Positions 7,491 to 40,102 of a stretch of DNA of 43,094 bases are shown here, piece after piece. Made by a program: the position numbers and the translations under genes. The stretch's first letter is position 1; every line of letters begins with the position of its first letter. A model generated the notes under the pieces. It did not search any database and had not been told where the DNA came from. It saw only the letters and a program-made list of their open reading frames with translations. The stretch is from an uncultured Methanosarcinales archaeon (GTDB lineage: Archaea; Nanobdellota; Nanobdellia; Woesearchaeales; CAZYIM01), in the NCBI GenBank assembly GCA_964647565.1, contig CAZYIM010000012.1:22414-65507 (forward strand), read 5' to 3'.

Positions 7491-7886
7491 TCAATATAGT
7501 TTCATAGAACTAATTTGCATCTGTATAAAACTCTTGGTTTTCTCCCATAATTTTGAAGGATAACGATAATTGTTAATAAATTCAGTATAAAGGAAAATAT
7601 CAGGATCTATTTTCAATAATAACCGTTTTAGCCGTGCTTTGGTAGCAGACTCTTTTGAGGCATTTTGATATTCTGTCCAATCCTGAAAATAGAAACCCGA
7701 AGGTGTTAAGAATTCTTTCAGATGATGCTTCCAAATATTCAGATTCAATATGCAAACATCAAAACCCTTCTGTTTAAGGAAAGAGGAAATATATCCTAAT
7801 CCTAACAAACATCTAGTTGGTAATGAAACTAAGCTCGGTGAATTAATTAAAAGAATTTTTTTCTTGGCTTGCATAGTCAAATACAC
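7491..7886 (-). pseudogene. Truncated B12-binding radical SAM gene (N-terminal B12-binding fragment only)
   Basis: KILLINSP...LGLGYISSFLKQKGFDVCILNLN...IDPDIF matches the start of the four intact B12-rSAMs here. The ORF stops at 131 aa with no GG motif and no CxxxCxxC. Confidence 0.65.
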
Positions 7887-7965: not shown

Positions 7966-8826
7966 ATGAAAAAAGATTTTAGCATTAAGATTGCTGTTGC
8001 AGGTATATGCTGTTTAATTAAATTAGTAAGAGTTCCATATCATACACCCGCCAAATCATTTTTCAAGACCTTTATTTCAACTACGCAACCAAAGATAAAA
8101 ATAACTATTTATCCTCAAGTTTCAAAGCAATTTCGGAATCTTGTCAAGAAGAATGGAAAAACAGTTGACATCAAAGAGCCTGAACAGGTTTCTATTAAAA
8201 AAGATCTAGCCACAGTTTCTGCAGAAGCATTTCAAGGCACTTTTAACAGAAAGAAAAAGGAGGGTATATTTTATGTTTCAATGAGCAAGGACATTGTCTT
8301 AATTGCAGTCAGAAATATTATCAGGCTCTGTTATGCCTTGACGCTTTTAGACATGGAAGGATGCTTAATCCACGGAGCAGGGATCAAAACTGGACGCAAT
8401 GGATATCTTATGGTCGGCGGGGCTTCTTCGGGAAAATCTACAGCTGCAGGCCTTATAGGCAAAATCATACTCAATGATGAATTTGTAGTTGTCCGAAGAG
8501 TTAACCATAGATTGCGGATTTTTGGAACTCCTTTTGGAGGCGATCACCCACCCTCAAACCAAGAAGTAAGATTAACACACGTTTTTTTCCTCAATAAGAG
8601 CAGACATGAAAAAATCATCAAAAACAACCCAATTGAGGGTATAAAAAAGATTCTTGCAAATGAGTTCTTATTTATGACCTTAATAGGAAAAAAAGAAAAA
8701 TCTACAATGAAGAAAACTTTTAAATTGATATCTGATTTATTGCAGAATAAACCTTCGTTTGATTTATTTTTTAAAAGGGATTCAAACATCAGGAGAATGA
8801 TAGATGGACTTGAAAAAAAAGCCTAA
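7966..8826 (+). CDS. HPr kinase-like P-loop protein (ScmC/PadeK-like putative peptide kinase)
   Basis: LIHGAG, Walker A-like GGASSGKST, ILNDEFVVV and IFGTPFGG, the pattern of HprK-related kinases found beside PqqD genes. Confidence 0.8.
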   Translation: MKKDFSIKIAVAGICCLIKLVRVPYHTPAKSFFKTFISTTQPKIKITIYPQVSKQFRNLVKKNGKTVDIKEPEQVSIKKDLATVSAEAFQGTFNRKKKEGIFYVSMSKDIVLIAVRNIIRLCYALTLLDMEGCLIHGAGIKTGRNGYLMVGGASSGKSTAAGLIGKIILNDEFVVVRRVNHRLRIFGTPFGGDHPPSNQEVRLTHVFFLNKSRHEKIIKNNPIEGIKKILANEFLFMTLIGKKEKSTMKKTFKLISDLLQNKPSFDLFFKRDSNIRRMIDGLEKKA

Positions 8827-9070
8827 ACTGATAAAGGATGTTGAGTATAAGGAAATTGATAATGAGACCTTGATTTTCTTGCCAGATGAAGGAACATTCT
8901 TTGAGCTCAATCAAGTTGGTTCAATAGTTTGGAACTTGTGCACAGGAAAAAACACAGTTCAATCAATAATACATACAATCACTAATGAGTTCGATATTAA
9001 CTATACCTTATGTAAGAAAGATGTGACTGGATATCTTAATGAATTGGTAAGAAAGGGCTTAATTAAATAA
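8804..9070 (+). CDS. PqqD-family RiPP recognition element (stand-alone RRE)
   Basis: 88 aa; FFELNQVGSIVWNLCTG...NEFDI...KKDVTGYLNELVRKGLI matches the PqqD consensus (LN..G..IW...DG...DV..FL..L...GLI). Confidence 0.93.
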   Translation: MDLKKKPKLIKDVEYKEIDNETLIFLPDEGTFFELNQVGSIVWNLCTGKNTVQSIIHTITNEFDINYTLCKKDVTGYLNELVRKGLIK

Positions 9071-9079
9071 TAGATTAGT

Positions 9080-9118
9080 CGCTTCTTGCAACTAAAATCC
9101 GCTTCTTGCAACTAAGAT
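9080..9118. repeat. Tandem direct repeat, 20-bp period (cgcttcttgcaactaa[a/g]at x2)
   Basis: 9080-9098 vs 9100-9118 match at 18/19 positions. The repeat overlaps the 3' end of the precursor-like ORF. Confidence 0.9.
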
Positions 9119-9199
9119 GTTTGATAGATTGTTAAGAGTTTCAACTGATTTTATCTCAGGCTTTTCATATTTCTTTTTCATACAAGCTTCTTTTTCCAT
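9092..9199 (-). CDS. Putative RiPP precursor peptide (MEKEAC)MKKKYEKPEIKSVETLNNLSNILVARSGF*
   Basis: Hand-translated: ATG 9199 (35 aa) or ATG 9181 (29 aa) to TAG 9094-9092. KKKYEKPEI fits the YxxPxL/I RRE-binding leader motif. It lies between the RRE and peptidase genes with a TATA box 24 nt upstream. Absent from the ORF track. Confidence 0.75.
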   Translation of the reverse strand: MEKEACMKKKYEKPEIKSVETLNNLSNILVARSGF

Positions 9200-9217
9200 C
9201 GATCCATTTTATTATAA

Positions 9218-9238
9218 CAAACTATATAAATTTTTTCT
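9218..9238. promoter_or_regulatory. Putative bidirectional archaeal TATA promoter (precursor peptide / S26 peptidase)
   Basis: tatataaa at 9223-9230. On minus it reads GAAAAAA-TTTATATA, 24 nt before ATG 9199. On plus it ends 22 nt before ATG 9252. Confidence 0.5.
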
Positions 9239-9251
9239 TTTTAAATAAAGT

Positions 9252-9686
9252 ATGAATAAAAATCAGGAATACCAAAAGCTAGTACAACAAGCGATAATAA
9301 ATAATAATGAAACCACCTTACCTATTAAGGGGATGAGTATGTACCCTACTATTAAACACGGCGATAAGATCACCCTGAAAAGAGCTGACATCTCACAACT
9401 TAGTATTGGTGATGTTATCGCAGTTAGAGAAGGGCAAAAACTCCAAGTTCACAGAATAGTCTGGAAAAAAAGATCCCTTTTCGTTACTAAAGGAGACCAT
9501 AATTTTCATTTTGATTCAAAGGTTAAAAAAAACCAGATAATTGGTTTAGTGACCCAAATCAATAGAAGAGATAATAGAAGGTTCAAATATCGAACCAAAG
9601 CACAGATAATAGCAATAATCTCCCTTTGTTTTGGTTTGATTCATAGGCTTTATTACAGTATTAGGAAGTTCATCTCCAAAGCATAA
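9252..9686 (+). CDS. S26/S24-family peptidase (Ser-His, Sec11/SipW-type), putative leader peptidase
   Basis: KGMSMYPTIKHGD (catalytic Ser), VHRIV (His), TKGDHN...D, IIGLV. No N-terminal TM anchor. Confidence 0.88.
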   Translation: MNKNQEYQKLVQQAIINNNETTLPIKGMSMYPTIKHGDKITLKRADISQLSIGDVIAVREGQKLQVHRIVWKKRSLFVTKGDHNFHFDSKVKKNQIIGLVTQINRRDNRRFKYRTKAQIIAIISLCFGLIHRLYYSIRKFISKA

Positions 9687-10701
9687 CCCAGCATTCTTTG
9701 AGCTTATCCTTAAAAGGTTTTTCATATAAGCCTCCTATGATGCAGCATTTAGAGCAAAAAGCTGCCTTGTGTTTTAGTTCGGCCTTGCTTTTTTTGAAGA
9801 GGTTTTTAATGTTAGTCTGAGTTACATTTCCCATCTGAGGCATCAAGCAGGAATTGAGAGTACCGTCAGGATCGACGGAAAGTACATTCAAAGCGCTTCG
9901 GCAAAGATTGTCTGCCCGCTTTGGTTGAAGTAAATTATCTTCTATGTAGTAATCCAGAATAAGTCTCAGATTTTTTTCAGCATTATTGATGTGTGCGTCC
10001 TTTTGTTTTAATCCAATCAGCTTATTTATCAAGTTTTTGAGATCATCATACTGCTTTGGCTGAATCCATATATCCTTATATCTATCCTTCCATTTATTGA
10101 ACAGGGGCCTGACTATGATGCCGTCTAAATTTTCTTTTCTTACAAATTGAACCAAATCAATAATCTGGTCTAGATTGTTAGACATAAGGATAGACCTAAG
10201 ATAAATCTTCATATCAGAGCCGTATTTGGAGCGAGCTGCTTTCAGATGTTGTATCGCTGAAAGTGCTTTTTTCAGGGAATTTTCTTTCTGTGTTATTTCA
10301 TTATTGACCTTAGAATCAAGGCTTTGTATAGAGATGACAATAGAATTAAGACCAGAATCAGTCAATTTTTTCGCCATGATTTGATCTATGAAGAATCCGT
10401 TTGAATCAATATTGGTTATTAAACCTTTTTTGGAAGCATACATTAAGATGTCTGTTGTGTCCTTCCTTAACAATGGTTCGCCACCTGAAAATGAGATAAA
10501 ACAGCTACCCAACCATTTGCTTATCTGTTGAATAAAAAGTTTCCATTGCTCTTTACTCAACTCTTTTGATTCAAGCTCTTGATAGAAGCACATCTGACAG
10601 TTATAGTTGCATCTGTTTGTCAGATCAACACAAACCAAGGTGGGACGCTTAATCAACCTCGAAACTATCAGGTGCCTGAGCTTTAAGAAACTTTTTTTCA
10701 T
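9670..10701 (-). CDS. Radical SAM protein with SPASM/Twitch domain
   Basis: CNYNCQMC, SGGEPLL, SNG; C-terminal C...DPDGTLNSC...GNV...CSKCC. Confidence 0.92.
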   Translation of the reverse strand: MKKSFLKLRHLIVSRLIKRPTLVCVDLTNRCNYNCQMCFYQELESKELSKEQWKLFIQQISKWLGSCFISFSGGEPLLRKDTTDILMYASKKGLITNIDSNGFFIDQIMAKKLTDSGLNSIVISIQSLDSKVNNEITQKENSLKKALSAIQHLKAARSKYGSDMKIYLRSILMSNNLDQIIDLVQFVRKENLDGIIVRPLFNKWKDRYKDIWIQPKQYDDLKNLINKLIGLKQKDAHINNAEKNLRLILDYYIEDNLLQPKRADNLCRSALNVLSVDPDGTLNSCLMPQMGNVTQTNIKNLFKKSKAELKHKAAFCSKCCIIGGLYEKPFKDKLKECWVMLWR

Positions 10702-10763: not shown

Positions 10764-11831
10764 ATAGGAAAAATAGAAGAAGAACTGATACTTGCTTGTC
10801 TTAATGATGACCAGAATAGAATTGGTAATATTATTAAATCTGAATTAGATTGGATGTCTTTTCTTGATCTTTGCGAATATCATATGATCTGGTCAAATAT
10901 TTATAACAATGTCAAGAGCAGAAAAGATATCCCGATAAAAGTGATTAGACATCTTAAAGAATTGGTTGTTTCAAACACTATACAAAATATGGTATTGTTT
11001 CAAGAAACCAAGATGATTTTCTCAAATCTCAACTGTTTCAGAGAGAAAGCAATCCTACTTAAAGGATTCTCTATTTCTGAAAAGACAAATGAAGACTATA
11101 CCTTCAGATTTACATCAGATATTGATATTCTAGTTCCCGAAGGCAGAATTGCTCAAGTTGGCAAAAGATTAAAAGAACTGGATTATGCCAAAAACTCAGA
11201 TTATATAAATAATTATTGGAATGCTTGGGATGAGGCGAAATCCCATCATGATCTTCCATTGACAAAAAAAATAAAGGATATGAAGGTTTGTGTTGAGCTT
11301 CACAATGGATTAGTTTTTACTAACAGCCCTTTTAATATCAGCAATAAAAGATTGTGGGAACAAAAAGATTCAATTAAGTTAGGAAATATAAAAATTCCAT
11401 CATTATCAACAGAGCACATGTTGATTCATATGTGTCTGCAGCTGGCTTACCAGCATAGCTTCAGGACTGCAATCCGAGACCTGCTAGACATATCAGCCAT
11501 ATTGAAAAAGAAGAAGATAAGATGGGATTCAATTGTTAAGGATGCGGTTGACTGGGGTGCTTCAGCCTTTGTTTATAGATGTTTAGAGCTTACAGTTCTG
11601 TTCTTTAGGATTGATATACCTAAAAAAGTTCTGGAACATCTGAGGAAAAAATCAAAAAAGAATCAACTTTGGTTGATTAACCACTTCAACAAGAAAAGCA
11701 TCCTGAAAATCAGGGCAGACTCAGAATATAAATTAATGCACTGGGGCCTTCAGTTCCTTTTTGCAGAAGATTTCAAGAATAAATTGGCTGTAATCAGAAA
11801 AGGACTGCTTTTTGTAAAAGAGAAAATATGA
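10764..11831 (+). CDS. Nucleotidyltransferase family protein (NTP_transf_5-like); probable non-ATG start upstream of the first ATG at 10854
   Basis: ILLKG, RFTSDIDILV, VELH, IRDLLDI motifs. The frame is open upstream of 10854 and reads IGKIEEELILACL...ELDW, the usual N-terminus of this family. Confidence 0.85.
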   Translation: MGKIEEELILACLNDDQNRIGNIIKSELDWMSFLDLCEYHMIWSNIYNNVKSRKDIPIKVIRHLKELVVSNTIQNMVLFQETKMIFSNLNCFREKAILLKGFSISEKTNEDYTFRFTSDIDILVPEGRIAQVGKRLKELDYAKNSDYINNYWNAWDEAKSHHDLPLTKKIKDMKVCVELHNGLVFTNSPFNISNKRLWEQKDSIKLGNIKIPSLSTEHMLIHMCLQLAYQHSFRTAIRDLLDISAILKKKKIRWDSIVKDAVDWGASAFVYRCLELTVLFFRIDIPKKVLEHLRKKSKKNQLWLINHFNKKSILKIRADSEYKLMHWGLQFLFAEDFKNKLAVIRKGLLFVKEKI

Positions 11832-13264
11832 ACAAAAAAAAACATCAAGGAAAAAAATTGAAAATTGCTTTCATAAACACATATACAGACCCAACAGAAT
11901 CAGCTCTATTTGGAAGCTTTTCAAGCAGATTAGTACCGATGGGAATACTTCTATTAGCTTCGATTATTCGAAAACAAGGGCATGTTATTAGTATTGTAGA
12001 TTATAATCATGAAAAAGAACAGAATACCCTGAATGATATCTTTAAAAAAAAACCAGATATTGTATTATTTAGTTCAACCACCCCTTTAATCGAATATGCA
12101 GTCAATCTTGCAAAAAAGATCAAAGCCTATGATAACAGCATCATCATTATAATCGGAGGCCCCCACATCAGTGTCTGCCCAAAAGAGACCTTGGAAAAAT
12201 ATCCTTCTTTTGACCTAGGTTTGACCGGGCAAAGCGAACAAAGCCTGATTAAGCTATTAGAACTCATGAAAAAAAAGAAGATACTCACAGAATTACCTGG
12301 GCTCGTATATAGACAAAAAAACCACATTGTCTATAATCCTCCCAGAACATATTCAAAATCTCTTGACGATCTCCCTTTCCCAGCTTGGGACCTGTTAAAA
12401 GGATTCCCTGACAAATATCAACCTACAATAACCAGCATAAAACAATCCCCTGCAGCATCCCTAATCACATCAAGAGGCTGCCCCTATAATTGCAAATTCT
12501 GTGATAAATCAATATTTGGAAGCCATTATCACGCAGAATCAGTCTCGCAGACAGTAGAAAAAATAAAATATCTGAATAAACGATTTGGAATCCAAGACAT
12601 ATTTTTCCTGGATGATGATTTTCTAATAGATAAAGAAAGGGTAAAACAAATTTGCCAAAGGATACTAGAACTAAAAATTAAAATCTCCTGGTCCTGCATT
12701 ACACGTGCATCTAATATAGAATCTGACTTGTTAAAACTCATGAAAATTGCAGGATGTTGGCAGCTTTCTTTCGGAGTCGAAAGCGGCTCCCAAACGATAT
12801 TGAACCTTATAAGCAAAGGAATTAGTGTAGAAAGTGCTAAAAAAAGCATACAAGAAACAAAAAAGGCAGGGATGAGTGCAAGGATATTCATAATGATAGG
12901 CTGTCCAGGCGAGACTATCAGCACTCTCAAAGAGACCATGAAATTCCTCAAGTTAACAGATCCAGATGATATAGTGCTTGGTTACTTTACACCCATCTGC
13001 GGTTCTGAGTTGAGCCAGGATTATGAAAAGTACGGTAAATTCGATTACTCGTGGAAGAATATGGATTTCTATAAACCTAATTTTATTCCACATTGTCTGG
13101 ATGTGAGCAATTTAATCGAGTATTACCGTAAGATTTTAATCAGTTTCTACCTAAAACCTAGGATCCTTGGACATTACCTGTTTAAGAAAAAACTAATATT
13201 TAATCCAAGTTTCATTATGGAAGGATTTAAAACAATCATGAAACTACTCGTTCCAGGGACATAA
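11828..13264 (+). CDS. B12-binding domain radical SAM protein
   Basis: PMGILLLAS, IGGPH, LDDLPFPAW, TSRGCPYNCKFC, FLDDDF, FGVESGS, IGCPGET. Confidence 0.93.
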   Translation: MNKKKHQGKKLKIAFINTYTDPTESALFGSFSSRLVPMGILLLASIIRKQGHVISIVDYNHEKEQNTLNDIFKKKPDIVLFSSTTPLIEYAVNLAKKIKAYDNSIIIIIGGPHISVCPKETLEKYPSFDLGLTGQSEQSLIKLLELMKKKKILTELPGLVYRQKNHIVYNPPRTYSKSLDDLPFPAWDLLKGFPDKYQPTITSIKQSPAASLITSRGCPYNCKFCDKSIFGSHYHAESVSQTVEKIKYLNKRFGIQDIFFLDDDFLIDKERVKQICQRILELKIKISWSCITRASNIESDLLKLMKIAGCWQLSFGVESGSQTILNLISKGISVESAKKSIQETKKAGMSARIFIMIGCPGETISTLKETMKFLKLTDPDDIVLGYFTPICGSELSQDYEKYGKFDYSWKNMDFYKPNFIPHCLDVSNLIEYYRKILISFYLKPRILGHYLFKKKLIFNPSFIMEGFKTIMKLLVPGT

Positions 13265-37230: not shown

Positions 37231-38061
37231 TTAATTTAAGCTAAATTTAAGGTCTATAATCCCAGAAGGTGCGTCTTTTTCAGAAATGATATTAAAAATA
37301 TACTTTTTGTAATGATGATTAAATGGATAAGAAATAGCATCATCATATGCTGCAACAGATAAAAAGTAAGTTCCCGTTAACATAGGCAATTTATTGATTT
37401 TAAATATCATTTCGCCTTCACCTTGAAGAGATCCGATTTTCTTCTTAATATGATTGTTATTGGCACCGAAAATCAACACCCCATCATAGCTGTGAATGGC
37501 AAATCCAATAACAGGGTTATCTATCTTATCCTTAGCATAATAGTCAATTTTGATTTTAAGCGCATCTCCTGTATGAAAAATAACCGATTCTACATTCTTT
37601 CTTAGCAATTGGACATTCCTGATAACCAACTCTTTAAAACCCCATGTTCGGGATTCTGCTTTTTCGCATGAACAAAAAGAATATGTAAACGTTAAGGTTT
37701 CAAGAATTAAATTTTCAAGATCATTTAATTCCTTAAGAACAGGATCATCCTTTTTTAAACCATGCTTAGAACTATCTAAAGCCGATAAGCAATTTCTAAG
37801 ATGGAATCCTATCTGCTGTTCAATAAAATCTTTATTTGAAATTACAGATTGGGGACTACCTTTTTGAAGATATTTAAAAAAATTTGTTAAGAATTCAGAA
37901 GCTTCTTTAAAGAGTCCTTGTTGAAAAAGAGATTCAATATTATTAAGAAATTCCGAGATACTAGCACGAATGTTGGGATAATCCTTTAATAAAGATACTT
38001 GAGTTGAAAAAACAGAACAGGCTTCTTTAATAAGCGATATCTTCCCATTATTAGATTGCAT
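37231..38061 (-). CDS. Stand-alone Wzt C-terminal (carbohydrate-binding) domain protein with helical N-terminus
   Basis: WGFKELVIRNVQLL...FHTGD...NPVIGFAI...DGVLIFG...LPMLTGTYFLSVAAYD...GII, the Ig-like Wzt_C pattern. Confidence 0.8.
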   Translation of the reverse strand: MQSNNGKISLIKEACSVFSTQVSLLKDYPNIRASISEFLNNIESLFQQGLFKEASEFLTNFFKYLQKGSPQSVISNKDFIEQQIGFHLRNCLSALDSSKHGLKKDDPVLKELNDLENLILETLTFTYSFCSCEKAESRTWGFKELVIRNVQLLRKNVESVIFHTGDALKIKIDYYAKDKIDNPVIGFAIHSYDGVLIFGANNNHIKKKIGSLQGEGEMIFKINKLPMLTGTYFLSVAAYDDAISYPFNHHYKKYIFNIISEKDAPSGIIDLKFSLN

Positions 38062-38569: not shown

Positions 38570-40102
38570 TTAAAAAACAGAATCAGATATAACTGAACGT
38601 TTAATGCTGTCTGAAACCAAATCTTTTAATTCGTTAATTAATCTGGCTTTATGTAAAGCATCAGGAGTGGCATCTATTTGCTGACGGAGTAACTCTTCAA
38701 GTTCTATTTTCATCTTCTTACGATATACGTCATCAATTGCAAAGTCTAATTGGAAATAAAGAAGGTTTTTAACCTCTTCCCTAAGGCGATCTGCATACTT
38801 TTTATTTTTTGCAGTGTTCAATAAGGTTCGAAAGAAACTCTTTAGCTCATTTAATAAATTGTTTCTATAGTCTGAATCTTGAGTTTTAGTAATTTCAAAT
38901 TTGAGCAATCCTTCAATTTCTTGAGTAGATTCATCAAAATCTGTCTTAGGGACTTCATTTTTTATCAATAAAACTAATTCTTGAAAGAATTTTTGTTTTG
39001 AATTTAATAACTCACTCCTTCGTTTCTCCAACTCGCTCAATTGGCACTCTTCCTCCGCCTTTTTTTCACGCTCACCTAAATATTTCAGTTTGTTTTTTAA
39101 AAGTGCGATCTCATTGGTATACTCCAGAATCAGGCTCTCAGTTGATTTCAATTTCTCCTTGATTAATTTTTTCAGATCTTTTATTAAATTAAGTTTTGAA
39201 TCCCTCAGTATCTCTAACTCTCGTTGTATAATCATCAATTCTTCTTGCGGTGGCGGATTAGAAATCTTAATTAATTTATTATATTTTGATTGTAACTCTT
39301 CAATCATTTGTTCCTTTTTAAGTAACTTCTCTTCAAATGATTGCTTATCCTCTAGATATATTTGGCCAAGGTAATGATCAATCACTAATTCTGTTTTCCC
39401 AATCATATCTATAGTACCTCCACTTATGAGTAAAGCTCGATCACAGATTGATTTTACTTCTGGAAGACTATGAGAGACAAAGATTACAGTTTTACCATTT
39501 TTAATAAATTCGAGCATTTTGTTAAGACTCCTCTTCCTAAATGTTTCATCTCCAACAGCCAAAATTTCATCAATTAGAAGTATATCTGGGTCCTGCAGCA
39601 ACGCAGTTGCAAAAGCAAGTCGAACTTCCATGCCAGATGAATAGTTTTTCAGTTTGGTATCAATAAAATTTTCTAATTGAGCAAATTCTACAATCTCTTC
39701 AAATTTTAAATCGATATATTCTTTGGACAGGCCAAGAATGGCACCATAAAGATATATATTCTCCTTGCCTGTGAGCTCAGGATTAAAACCAACTCCTAAC
39801 TCTATAAACGGCATGATCTTACCCACAGTTTTAATTTCTCCAGAAGTAGGTTTAAGAATATTTGCTATGATTTTCAGAAGTGTAGTTTTACCGCTACCAT
39901 TCCTGCCAATCACACCAATGCATTCTCCCTCTTGAATACTAAGATTAATATCATTTAAGACGTGAAACTTTTCTATATCTGAAGAGCCTTTAAAGATGGT
40001 TATCATTTGATCAAGAAGAGTGTCCCTTTTTTCATGGCAGATATTAAAGAACTTATTGATATTCTTTAATTTAATTACTTCCATATTATACCTCTTCTGC
40101 AA
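38570..40102 (-). CDS. wzt: Polysaccharide ABC exporter ATP-binding protein (Wzt/TagH-like) with coiled-coil and helical-repeat C-terminal extension
   Basis: Walker A GRNGSGKTT, GFNPELTGKEN, signature YSSGM, Walker B LLIDE, VSH; then about 260 aa of helical sequence. Confidence 0.92.
   Translation of the reverse strand: MQKRYNMEVIKLKNINKFFNICHEKRDTLLDQMITIFKGSSDIEKFHVLNDINLSIQEGECIGVIGRNGSGKTTLLKIIANILKPTSGEIKTVGKIMPFIELGVGFNPELTGKENIYLYGAILGLSKEYIDLKFEEIVEFAQLENFIDTKLKNYSSGMEVRLAFATALLQDPDILLIDEILAVGDETFRKRSLNKMLEFIKNGKTVIFVSHSLPEVKSICDRALLISGGTIDMIGKTELVIDHYLGQIYLEDKQSFEEKLLKKEQMIEELQSKYNKLIKISNPPPQEELMIIQRELEILRDSKLNLIKDLKKLIKEKLKSTESLILEYTNEIALLKNKLKYLGEREKKAEEECQLSELEKRRSELLNSKQKFFQELVLLIKNEVPKTDFDESTQEIEGLLKFEITKTQDSDYRNNLLNELKSFFRTLLNTAKNKKYADRLREEVKNLLYFQLDFAIDDVYRKKMKIELEELLRQQIDATPDALHKARLINELKDLVSDSIKRSVISDSVF

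Follow-up and report, generated by a model that had tools for sequence, protein, structure and literature searches.

A precursor-type peptide gene in a kinase/RRE/signal-peptidase cassette of a Woesearchaeales archaeon, probably part of an archaeal variant of the linear polyphosphorylated peptide systems

The 43,094-nt stretch of DNA analysed here in full (the window; contig CAZYIM010000012.1 of assembly GCA_964647565.1, from an uncultured archaeon placed by GTDB in the Woesearchaeales) carries a minus-strand open reading frame (ORF) of 35 codons between a gene for a discrete PqqD-type RiPP recognition element (RRE; RiPP, ribosomally made peptide modified after translation) and a gene for a short signal peptidase of the S24/S26 type. 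That this ORF is a genuine precursor-type peptide gene of the surrounding cassette we consider very probable. It is probable, to a lesser degree, that it encodes a RiPP-type precursor serving as the substrate of an archaeal variant of the cassettes for linear polyphosphorylated peptides (LPP), with binding by the RRE, phosphorylation of the core, cleavage by the S26 peptidase and further decoration. We infer its expression, its phosphorylation and cleavage, and every chemical step from the gene itself, its family, its synteny, the geometry of its promoter and the enzyme families around it. The peptide gene and its parts are as follows.

9092-9199, minus strand: precursor peptide gene, 35 codons from the ATG at 9199, MEKEACMKKKYEKPEIKSVETLNNLSNILVARSGF, with a 29-aa form from an inner ATG at 9181
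Residues 1-27 of the 35-aa form: proposed leader, K-rich, with Tyr11-x-x-Pro14-x-Ile16 and the end Leu25-Ser26-Asn27
Residues Ile28-Phe35: proposed core, ILVARSGF, in which Ser33 is the sole hydroxyl
9231 to 9224, minus strand: TATA box TTTATATA, an exact match beginning at -31 from ATG 9199, with purine-rich GAAAAAA before it

The original prediction had singled out this 29/35-aa frame as convergent on the RRE gene and divergent from the S26 gene, and both its coordinates and its gaps hold: 21 nt separate its stop from that of the PqqD gene (8804-9070, plus strand), and 52 nt separate ATG 9199 from the ATG that opens the S24/S26 gene (9252-9686, plus strand). The motif letters in the window are Y-E-K-P-E-I. 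The peptide had also been described as free of Cys, which is true of the 29-aa form and not of the 35-aa form, where one Cys stands within the N-terminal extension, and as having no Asp or Glu suited to a lasso ring, which is borne out by the lack of either residue beyond Glu20 (35-aa numbering); no cyclase or B2 peptidase was found in the window. An identical 35-aa protein is already present, without a name, in a public protein collection.

Since ORFs of at least 25 aa number 127 in 14 kb of this DNA, the length of the peptide ORF alone is unremarkable, and it is the family around it that makes the case. Relatives were gathered through the neighbouring kinase-like protein, which in a HMMER search of 1.84 billion representative proteins gave 2,744 matches at E<=0.001, 283 at <=1e-10 and 5 at <=1e-30. 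Of 401 genomes of the same order, 22 matched a kinase profile of 30 members at E<=1e-8 and nine of these, counting that of the window, at E<=1e-33, and in a phylum-wide sample 5 of 401 genomes reached E<=1e-20, one genome being new to the set; scans with one narrow pattern returned one locus in genome contigs (L017) and one in metagenome contigs. L017 carries the same peptide as L041, and the two are counted once. The set thus assembled comprises 11 loci, including the window, each taken as about 20 kb around a strong kinase match, with genes labelled by BLAST against the window proteins.

A similar K-rich aromatic-x-x-Pro mini-peptide lies in nine of the ten other loci beside the kinase homologue, and with the window 10 of 11 loci hold a cassette mini-ORF of 25-47 aa; in the remaining locus, L046, an 8.5-kb contig, a peptide candidate was sought and none was found. 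The peptides share an architecture in which a K-rich start is followed by aromatic-x-x-Pro-x-[I/L/V/C], spaced hydrophobic residues, a hydrophobic-small-[N/S/A] triplet and an unalignable tail. Aromatic-x-x-P is present in all ten (8 Tyr, 1 Phe, 1 Trp), and the residue two past Pro is I or L in nine and Cys in L043. Such an alignment of peptides beside homologous loci was the check proposed with the original prediction, and its claim that a precursor-type peptide belongs to the RRE cassette is upheld by it: the homologous peptides stand beside sets of kinase, RRE and S26 genes in those nine loci, and the RRE retains both residues that in the solved LppB contact the Tyr and the Pro kink.

The resemblance is well above what short frames offer by chance. 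In a leave-one-out comparison, in which the profile was built from the nine peptides of the other loci and the null consisted of 67,041 other short stop-to-stop frames of the peptide's own genome, the window peptide scores 28.5 bits and the best null frame 12.2. The other members, with the number of null frames reaching their score in brackets, give 35.9 bits (0) for L049, 34.4 (0) for L041, 17.4 (0) for L044, 16.0 (0) for L045, 13.1 (1) for L051, 9.4 (6) for L047, 8.8 (10) for L043, 8.1 (11) for L048 and 5.4 (92) for L042. The best null frames of the window's genome (e.g. C7:60806-60934) were inspected and are not peptide genes. The bare motif M.{0,6}Y..P.[LIVM] occurs in 79 of 30,718 M-started frames of 20-80 aa in the same genome. 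At the conserved residues the codons differ between loci, Pro for instance being CCT, CCG or CCA, and this synonymous variation argues that selection has acted on the protein; the ORF also stays intact across loci while its strand and its neighbours change.

Wider searches added little to the family. A peptide-profile search of a collection of 5.8 billion proteins returned only three peptides, all of them already members and all unnamed, their ORFs having been predicted by public gene callers with the window's 35-aa form among them, and the peptide used as a direct query against 60 relatives gave chance-level matches only (best E 0.019, with internal stops). The 14 short loci that surround weak kinase-like matches, 42.7 kb in all, yielded no convincing peptide. 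A single weak candidate there, in an unpublished genome, G209, carries no claim made here.

The tails have a composition of their own. Across the family the cores run from 3 to 23 aa, and Ser or Thr makes up 29 of 98 core residues (30%) against 23 of 225 leader residues (10%) and 11% of the proteome (Fisher p = 3e-5, for a leader/core boundary that was picked after the alignment had been seen). Each of the ten cores holds at least one Ser or Thr, and Ser occupies no fixed core position. The longest core by far, of 23 aa with three Cys, is that of L043 (9982-10125), a relative of higher GC content in which the peptide frame overlaps the end of the radical SAM/SPASM gene; with no ATG in the frame, this peptide probably starts at GTG.

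The promoter geometry also speaks for a real gene. The TATA-like box that the original prediction had given the ORF proves to be an exact TTTATATA, and the -31 from ATG 9199 becomes -49 when counted from the inner ATG 9181. Across the whole genome, matches to TTTAWATA with at most one mismatch peak at -32 to -28 ahead of the first ATG in long ORFs, where 2,138 such ORFs give 462 hits compared with about 6-30 per position elsewhere, and TATA-like octamers centre on -30 ahead of about a fifth of these 2,138 ORFs. A sharp TATA peak some 30 nt before the ATG is characteristic of leaderless transcription driven by archaeal TATA promoters, and leaderless transcripts seem, from this pattern, to be the rule in this archaeon. 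Six of the ten family peptide genes have a TATA box (at most one mismatch) starting at -30 to -32 from the ATG, and L047 and L051 show two-mismatch versions in the same place when inspected by eye. Because the box in the window sits at the genome's peak position relative to ATG 9199, the peptide gene would have its own promoter and the 35-aa form made from that codon is favoured; the start used by most family members corresponds to Met7 of this form. The AT-rich TATA region (9224-9251) also lies 21-28 nt ahead of the divergent S26 start codon at 9252, and a single near-palindromic TATA may serve both genes.

A literature search returned one account of LPP, that of Popov et al. (Nat Commun 2026; PMC13381572), which describes the lppA-K-B-S-D-N cluster of Paenibacillus alginolyticus. 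The core set there comprises a precursor, an HprK-like kinase (LppK), an RRE (LppB), an archaeal-type signal peptidase (LppS, WP_029196374.1), an MsbA-like pump (LppD) and LppN, termed an 'uncharacterized NTP transferase'. The RRE-binding motif of the precursor is given as [Y/W]xxPx[L/V/I/F/A] and the extended leader consensus as YxxPxVLxHQxIxFETxxS; the leader is cut behind T-1, and the phosphorylated Ser is the third core residue. By experiment, LppK polyphosphorylates core Ser3 and does not accept Thr, and LppS removes the leader only if LppB presents the peptide. The crystal structures 9x8z and 9x90 show the Tyr hydroxyl held by Asp70 of LppB and the Pro kink secured by Asn33. The residues listed for LppS are Ser29, His68 and Asp93. 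The reported precursors are 35-200 aa long, the characterised LppA core being 45 aa, and the clusters are described as lying in capsule/polysaccharide loci without a cyclase. According to the authors, LPPs are confined to the Bacillota, and neither the final product nor the role is known. The term 'radical SAM' is absent from the main text, and 'Radical_SAM' appears once, as a domain label, in supplementary file 2. In supplementary file 1 'Archaea' occurs 9 times, including in rows on Thermoproteota signal peptidases that are empty or 0 where a preceding bacterial row has an RRE accession (PMC13381572).

With this account in print since May 2026, complete with a matching enzyme set, the original prediction's 'new precursor class' does not stand as worded, and the window is better described as an archaeal variant. 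The comparison rests on the following genes.

7966-8826, plus strand: HprK/PEPCK-fold P-loop kinase-like protein, 286 aa, overlapping the RRE gene by 23 nt
8804-9070, plus strand: discrete PqqD-type RRE of the lasso-B1/LppB kind, 88 aa, PF05402 at E 2.7e-15
9252-9686, plus strand: short paralogue of archaeal-type signal peptidase I (S24/S26), 144 aa, without a hydrophobic N-terminal anchor; proposed leader peptidase
10854-11831, plus strand: PF14907 nucleotidyltransferase (NTP_transf_5), E 5.3e-37

The first likeness to LPP as described lies in the precursor, since the window family too combines an N-terminal YxxPx[V/I/L] leader with a variable C-terminus. The second is a discrete RRE with the Asn and Asp that bind the Pro kink and the Tyr: all ten RREs of the archaeal alignment have Asn36, eight of the ten have the Asp of K-D-V, and a HMMER alignment to 9x8z_B places these columns on LppB Asn33 and Asp70 (chain numbering offset 18). 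The best NCBIfam model of the window RRE is lasso_PqqD_Bac at 50.3 bits, under the cut-off of 80, and its matches to ScmD (4.6e-11) and to the GeoRSP PqqD model (1.9e-11) are likewise under cut-off. Against the PDB the RRE family profile finds TbiB1 (4.7e-16), 9x90_B (1.7e-14), 9x8z_B, which is LppB (2.4e-12), TfuB1 (7e-9) and PqqD itself (5e-5). As a query against the 60 relatives, the RRE recovered one. In L047 (RRE 9301-9561, peptide 10593-10685) the RRE is the only one without an acidic residue at the Tyr-binding position and the peptide is the only one with Phe for Tyr, a pairing that may represent co-variation, in a single case.

The kinase is likened to the HprK-like LppK by fold and description, not by sequence. 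The window protein itself has no Pfam or NCBIfam match; among the 30 family members 20 match TIGR04352 (HprK-related kinase A), 19 ScmC and 18 TIGR04355, weakly (best E about 1e-10) and all under the curated cut-offs. Its AlphaFold2 model has a pLDDT (predicted local distance difference test) of 93.5, and PEP carboxykinases head its Foldseek matches (E 1e-7, TMq about 0.5), HPr kinase 1knx following at rank 40. H136, G156 and K157 are invariant in one alignment (A1), and in an alignment of nine sequences (A2) T159, D171, E172 and T188-P189-F190 are invariant as well. Sequence searches of the PDB gave nothing meaningful for the single protein and P-loop matches only for the profile, and a word-indexed protein search recovered only the kinase itself. 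In 6 of 11 loci the PqqD gene directly follows the kinase gene.

The short archaeal-type signal peptidase I with Ser, His and Asp, here predicted to be the leader peptidase, is likened to LppS by description. It matches TIGR02228 at 57.9 bits (cut-off 51.85) and PF00717 at 25.8 bits (cut-off 23.3), is one of three S26-type genes in the genome, and has homologues in 8 of 11 loci, in four of which the gene adjoins the peptide gene directly; all eight cassette homologues keep Ser29, His67-Arg68 and Gly81-Asp82, the catalytic Ser, His and Asp among them. The PF14907 protein, likened to the NTP-transferase LppN by description, has homologues in nine of the ten other loci. Finally, both settings are polysaccharide/glycosyltransferase loci, without a macrolactam cyclase or B2 peptidase.

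The archaeal cassettes also differ from LPP as reported in several respects. They occur in archaea rather than in Bacillota. The tail of the leader has K or R at the LppA L-10 position, lacks HQ and FET, and carries the hydrophobic-small-[N/S/A] triplet instead. The precursors, at 25-47 aa with cores of 3-23 aa, are short in comparison with the 35-200 aa of LPP precursors and the 45-aa LppA core, and genes for radical SAM/SPASM and B12-radical SAM enzymes are interleaved with the rest. What is new relative to LPP is the leader tail, the very short cores, the added radical SAM enzymes and the archaeal host. The window cassette is best taken as an archaeal, and new, variant of the LPP kind, outside the LPP clade as defined; the likeness may reflect either common descent or parallel assembly, the RRE profile being no closer to LppB than to TbiB1.

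Two other groups of systems share parts of this set. In the phosphorylated lasso peptides paeninodin and pseudomycoidin, an HPr-kinase homologue (PadeK, PsmK) acts on the linear lasso precursor and a nucleotidyltransferase (PsmN) can add hexose to the phosphate, the leader [Y/W]xxP is recognised by a PqqD-type B1 protein, and the kinases take a C-terminal Ser (PMC8498205). The cyclase threading and B2 cysteine peptidase described for those systems are missing here, and only three of the ten family peptides end in Ser. The sets of NCBIfam TIGR04352/TIGR04355 and SynChlorMet (ScmC, ScmD, ScmE/F) resemble the window in combining kinase-like and PqqD-like proteins with radical SAM/SPASM partners; a literature search on SynChlorMet found no account of its function, and searches on HprK-related kinases, on PF14907 / NTP_transf_5 and on RREs with HPr kinase found nothing on such a cassette.

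If the window cassette works as LPP systems do, its own TATA/BRE (B recognition element) promoter would give, from the geometry described, a leaderless mRNA beginning at ATG 9199, and the PqqD-type RRE would grip the leader through Tyr11-x-x-Pro14-x-Ile16, its conserved Asp taking the Tyr hydroxyl and its invariant Asn fixing the Pro kink, as homology to the solved LppB-LppA complex would have it. The RRE would then hand the peptide to the HprK-like kinase, and by analogy with LppK and PadeK the kinase would phosphorylate a core hydroxyl, here Ser33, possibly several times. The PF14907 transferase and glycosyltransferases of the island may extend the phosphate, in analogy to pseudomycoidin PsmN, and the adjacent RRE-less radical SAM/SPASM enzyme would add a further modification of unspecified kind. 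The short signal peptidase would cut after the hydrophobic-small-[N/S/A] triplet, Leu25-Ser26-Asn27, and free the 8-residue modified core ILVARSGF. That cleavage falls after Asn27 is suggested by analogy, because the family triplet matches LppA F-3/E-2/T-1 roughly by position; counted by LPP spacing, the cut would instead come after Ser26.

The end of the core has a history of its own, as the 3' end of the gene lies in a tandem duplication.

9080-9098 and 9100-9118, no strand assigned: two 19-nt copies, 20 nt apart, 18/19 identical

The duplication spans the last eight codons and the stop of the peptide ORF. Read along the coding strand, the first copy opens precisely with codon 28, where the core is proposed to begin (9199-9118 = 81 = 27 codons), and the second, which is out of frame, gives part of Gly34, Phe35 and the stop; a single-copy version would end the peptide in ILVARSD and a stop, as the other frame reads. 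The present C-terminus is accordingly recent, and the duplication may be either a diversification of the hypervariable core or the start of decay. A single public contig (run X1, 8697-9261) spans the duplication with at least 31 nt on each side and shows no difference, and two others cover it with shorter flanks; as all three come from one study, which may include the source sample, the lack of variants is weak evidence. Read-through of the TAG stop and a programmed frameshift at the duplication were considered and dropped, as nothing supports either.

Several observations sit uneasily with an archaeal LPP variant. The peptides of L042, L043, L047 and L048, and that of L042 most of all, are weak by sequence and rest on motif and position; the L043 frame, as noted, has no ATG, and the L047 ORF shares 47 nt with the 3' end of its convergent S26 gene. 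The enzyme set is also uneven, with PqqD 12 kb away in L044 and not found in L048, S26 missing from 3 of 11 loci, and NTP_transf_5 not found in L046 or L048 by the BLAST labelling of loci. Among the 38 window ORFs scanned there is no MsbA-type (ABC_membrane) exporter, the only transporter being of the ABC-2/Wzt type and 29 kb away. The 3-residue cores of L045 and L047 are unprecedented among LPPs as reported, and three of the ten cores (L041, L042, L045) contain Thr only, a residue that LppK rejects (PMC13381572). What follows YxxPxV in the LPP consensus (LxHQxIxFETxxS) is absent, and hence the cleavage site and the phospho-acceptor proposed above are guesses. At 50 bits to LppB and 62 bits to TbiB1, the archaeal RRE profile is not specifically nearest to LppB. 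The predicted complex of RRE and peptide scores 0.54 against 0.02 for the best of three controls, with runs agreeing in at least 89% of contacts and a partner pLDDT of 61, and it lends weak support to binding: among solved complexes 116 of 157 attain the mark for the score, among mismatched pairs 2 of 215, but at or below 0.60 lie only 18 of those 157 and both of the passing mismatches. The pass may reflect likeness to the solved complexes 5v1v, 6jx3, 9x8z and 9x90, not binding of this copy. The recent rewriting of the 3' end by the 20-nt duplication could, for its part, signal decay.

Among the alternatives the one that survives best, although we think it unlikely, accepts the peptide as real and gives the defining chemistry to a radical SAM/SPASM enzyme together with the RRE, as in PQQ (pyrroloquinoline quinone), mycofactocin and the cross-linked radical SAM RiPPs, while the kinase and the PF14907 protein act elsewhere in the island or only decorate. 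The enzyme in question is the peptide's same-strand upstream neighbour.

9670-10701, minus strand: radical SAM/SPASM enzyme, 343 aa, Pfam Radical_SAM and SPASM, without an RRE domain of its own

Its gene is one gene off in the window, where the S26 gene lies between, and a radical SAM/SPASM gene is likewise one gene off in L048 and adjoins the peptide gene in L041, L042, L043 and L049; in L041 and L049 it is an orthologue of 34-35% identity (E 1e-58 to 1e-61) directly upstream. The radical SAM domain of the window enzyme begins at residue 27, and the enzyme, lacking an RRE, would need the discrete PqqD. Like the window, mycofactocin and PQQ combine a very short peptide and a peptidase with a discrete PqqD-type RRE and a radical SAM/SPASM enzyme, joined in mycofactocin by a family 2 glycosyltransferase (GT2), and the short C-terminal cores recall the small-molecule precursors MftA and PqqA. 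Their precursors, however, have strictly conserved C-terminal residues, whereas those of the window family are hypervariable, and the two pathways have no kinase and no PF14907 transferase. Although radical SAM genes occur in 10 of 11 loci (none in L047 by BLAST labelling), those next to the peptide are not one orthologous group: a clear orthologue of the window enzyme is present only in the window, L041 and L049, and no SPASM enzyme was seen by the same labelling in the cassettes of L044, L045 and L047. The constant pair is that of kinase and RRE, with overlapping genes, and the cores offer no fixed residue for a single cross-link, Cys being absent from 5 of 10 and the C-termini unconserved. 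Against the PDB the radical SAM enzyme gave generic SPASM and MoaA matches only, with no clue to its chemistry. The radical SAM part of the cassette is also what has no LPP precedent in the main text of PMC13381572, a point in favour of this alternative.

It is much less probable that the product is a small unmodified protein or a regulatory peptide merely travelling with the cassette. A conserved K-rich N-terminus with spaced hydrophobic residues could suit a small structural or membrane-active peptide, but the conserved motif is the one bound by solved RREs of the same clade and the adjacent RRE keeps the binding residues (as judged against the LppB structures of PMC13381572), and a conserved N-terminus joined to a hypervariable C-terminus is the pattern of leader and core. 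That the ORF is a product of chance and the conserved feature one of DNA, for instance a promoter or terminator where genes converge and diverge, might seem natural in AT-rich DNA as full of short ORFs as this, in a region with a shared TATA region and a DNA repeat. This reading is close to refuted by the leave-one-out score, by conservation in one frame with synonymous changes and by the integrity of the ORF through changes of strand and neighbours, and we hold it to be highly improbable.

Least credible of all is a lasso precursor whose cyclase and B2 peptidase are encoded elsewhere, to which YxxPxI (the lasso leader motif), the RRE's best NCBIfam model and PDB match (lasso PqqD and TbiB1) and the Asn-synthase-family genes on other contigs of the genome might point, but lasso cores are about 15-25 residues long with an Asp or Glu at position 7-9 for the isopeptide ring, whereas the window core has neither residue and a threaded ring is beyond cores of 3-10 residues, neither an Asn_synthase nor a transglutaminase-type gene is present in the window or in the unlabelled ORFs of nine other loci, and PF13471 was not found in the 87%-complete genome.

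An archaeal version of LPP, if that is what the cassette represents, would show the logic of kinase, RRE and signal peptidase crossing domains and would bear on the origin of the 'archaeal-type' leader peptidase. It would also give a ribosomal peptide pathway to the small-genome archaea of the Woesearchaeota type, for which a literature search found no characterised RiPP. Cores of 3-13 residues would be natural minimal substrates, easier to work with than a 45-residue core for phosphorylation, RRE-dependent cleavage and the NTP-transferase step, and the recurrent placing in glycan islands in both domains makes peptide-linked phosphoglycans a testable idea. It is tempting to go further and imagine the mini-precursors as ribosomally made primers rather than antibiotic-like end products: the kinase would phosphorylate a core of 3-13 residues, and PF14907, GT2 and GT-C glycosyltransferases and radical SAM enzymes would build on it a phosphate-linked, heavily tailored glycan, in effect a peptide-anchored surface polymer of small-genome marine archaea. 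The LPP system would then be archaeal in origin and have moved to bacteria, a thought linked to the leader peptidase being 'archaeal-type' even in Bacillota. We regard this proposal as quite unlikely.

The cassette may extend beyond the genes discussed so far, and one neighbour is a possible additional tailoring enzyme of uncertain membership.

11828-13264, plus strand: B12-binding radical SAM enzyme

B12-radical SAM genes are found again in other loci by BLAST labelling. The genome as a whole is 2.68 Mb, 87% complete and 38% GC (34% in the window), its SSU and LSU rRNA fit archaeal models best, and the stretch is present in marine/seawater metagenome runs. The entire 43-kb window has the character of a glycan-type island, with GT2, family 4 (GT4) and GT-C (PMT_2) glycosyltransferases, sulfatases, methyltransferases, a Wzx-like flippase, an ABC-2/Wzt transporter and twelve radical SAM genes. 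These twelve lie within 9670-34758, seven being SPASM-type or plain and five B12-binding, a count far above the need of one peptide pathway. A 131-aa ORF at 7491-7886 (minus strand) has no family match and a faint likeness (E 0.055) to the N-terminus of one of the window's B12-radical SAM proteins, and may be a truncated remnant. The Wzt C-terminal glycan-binding domain of the transporter is encoded as an ORF of its own, of 276 aa, separate from the ABC ATPase gene (37231-38061 and 38570-40102).

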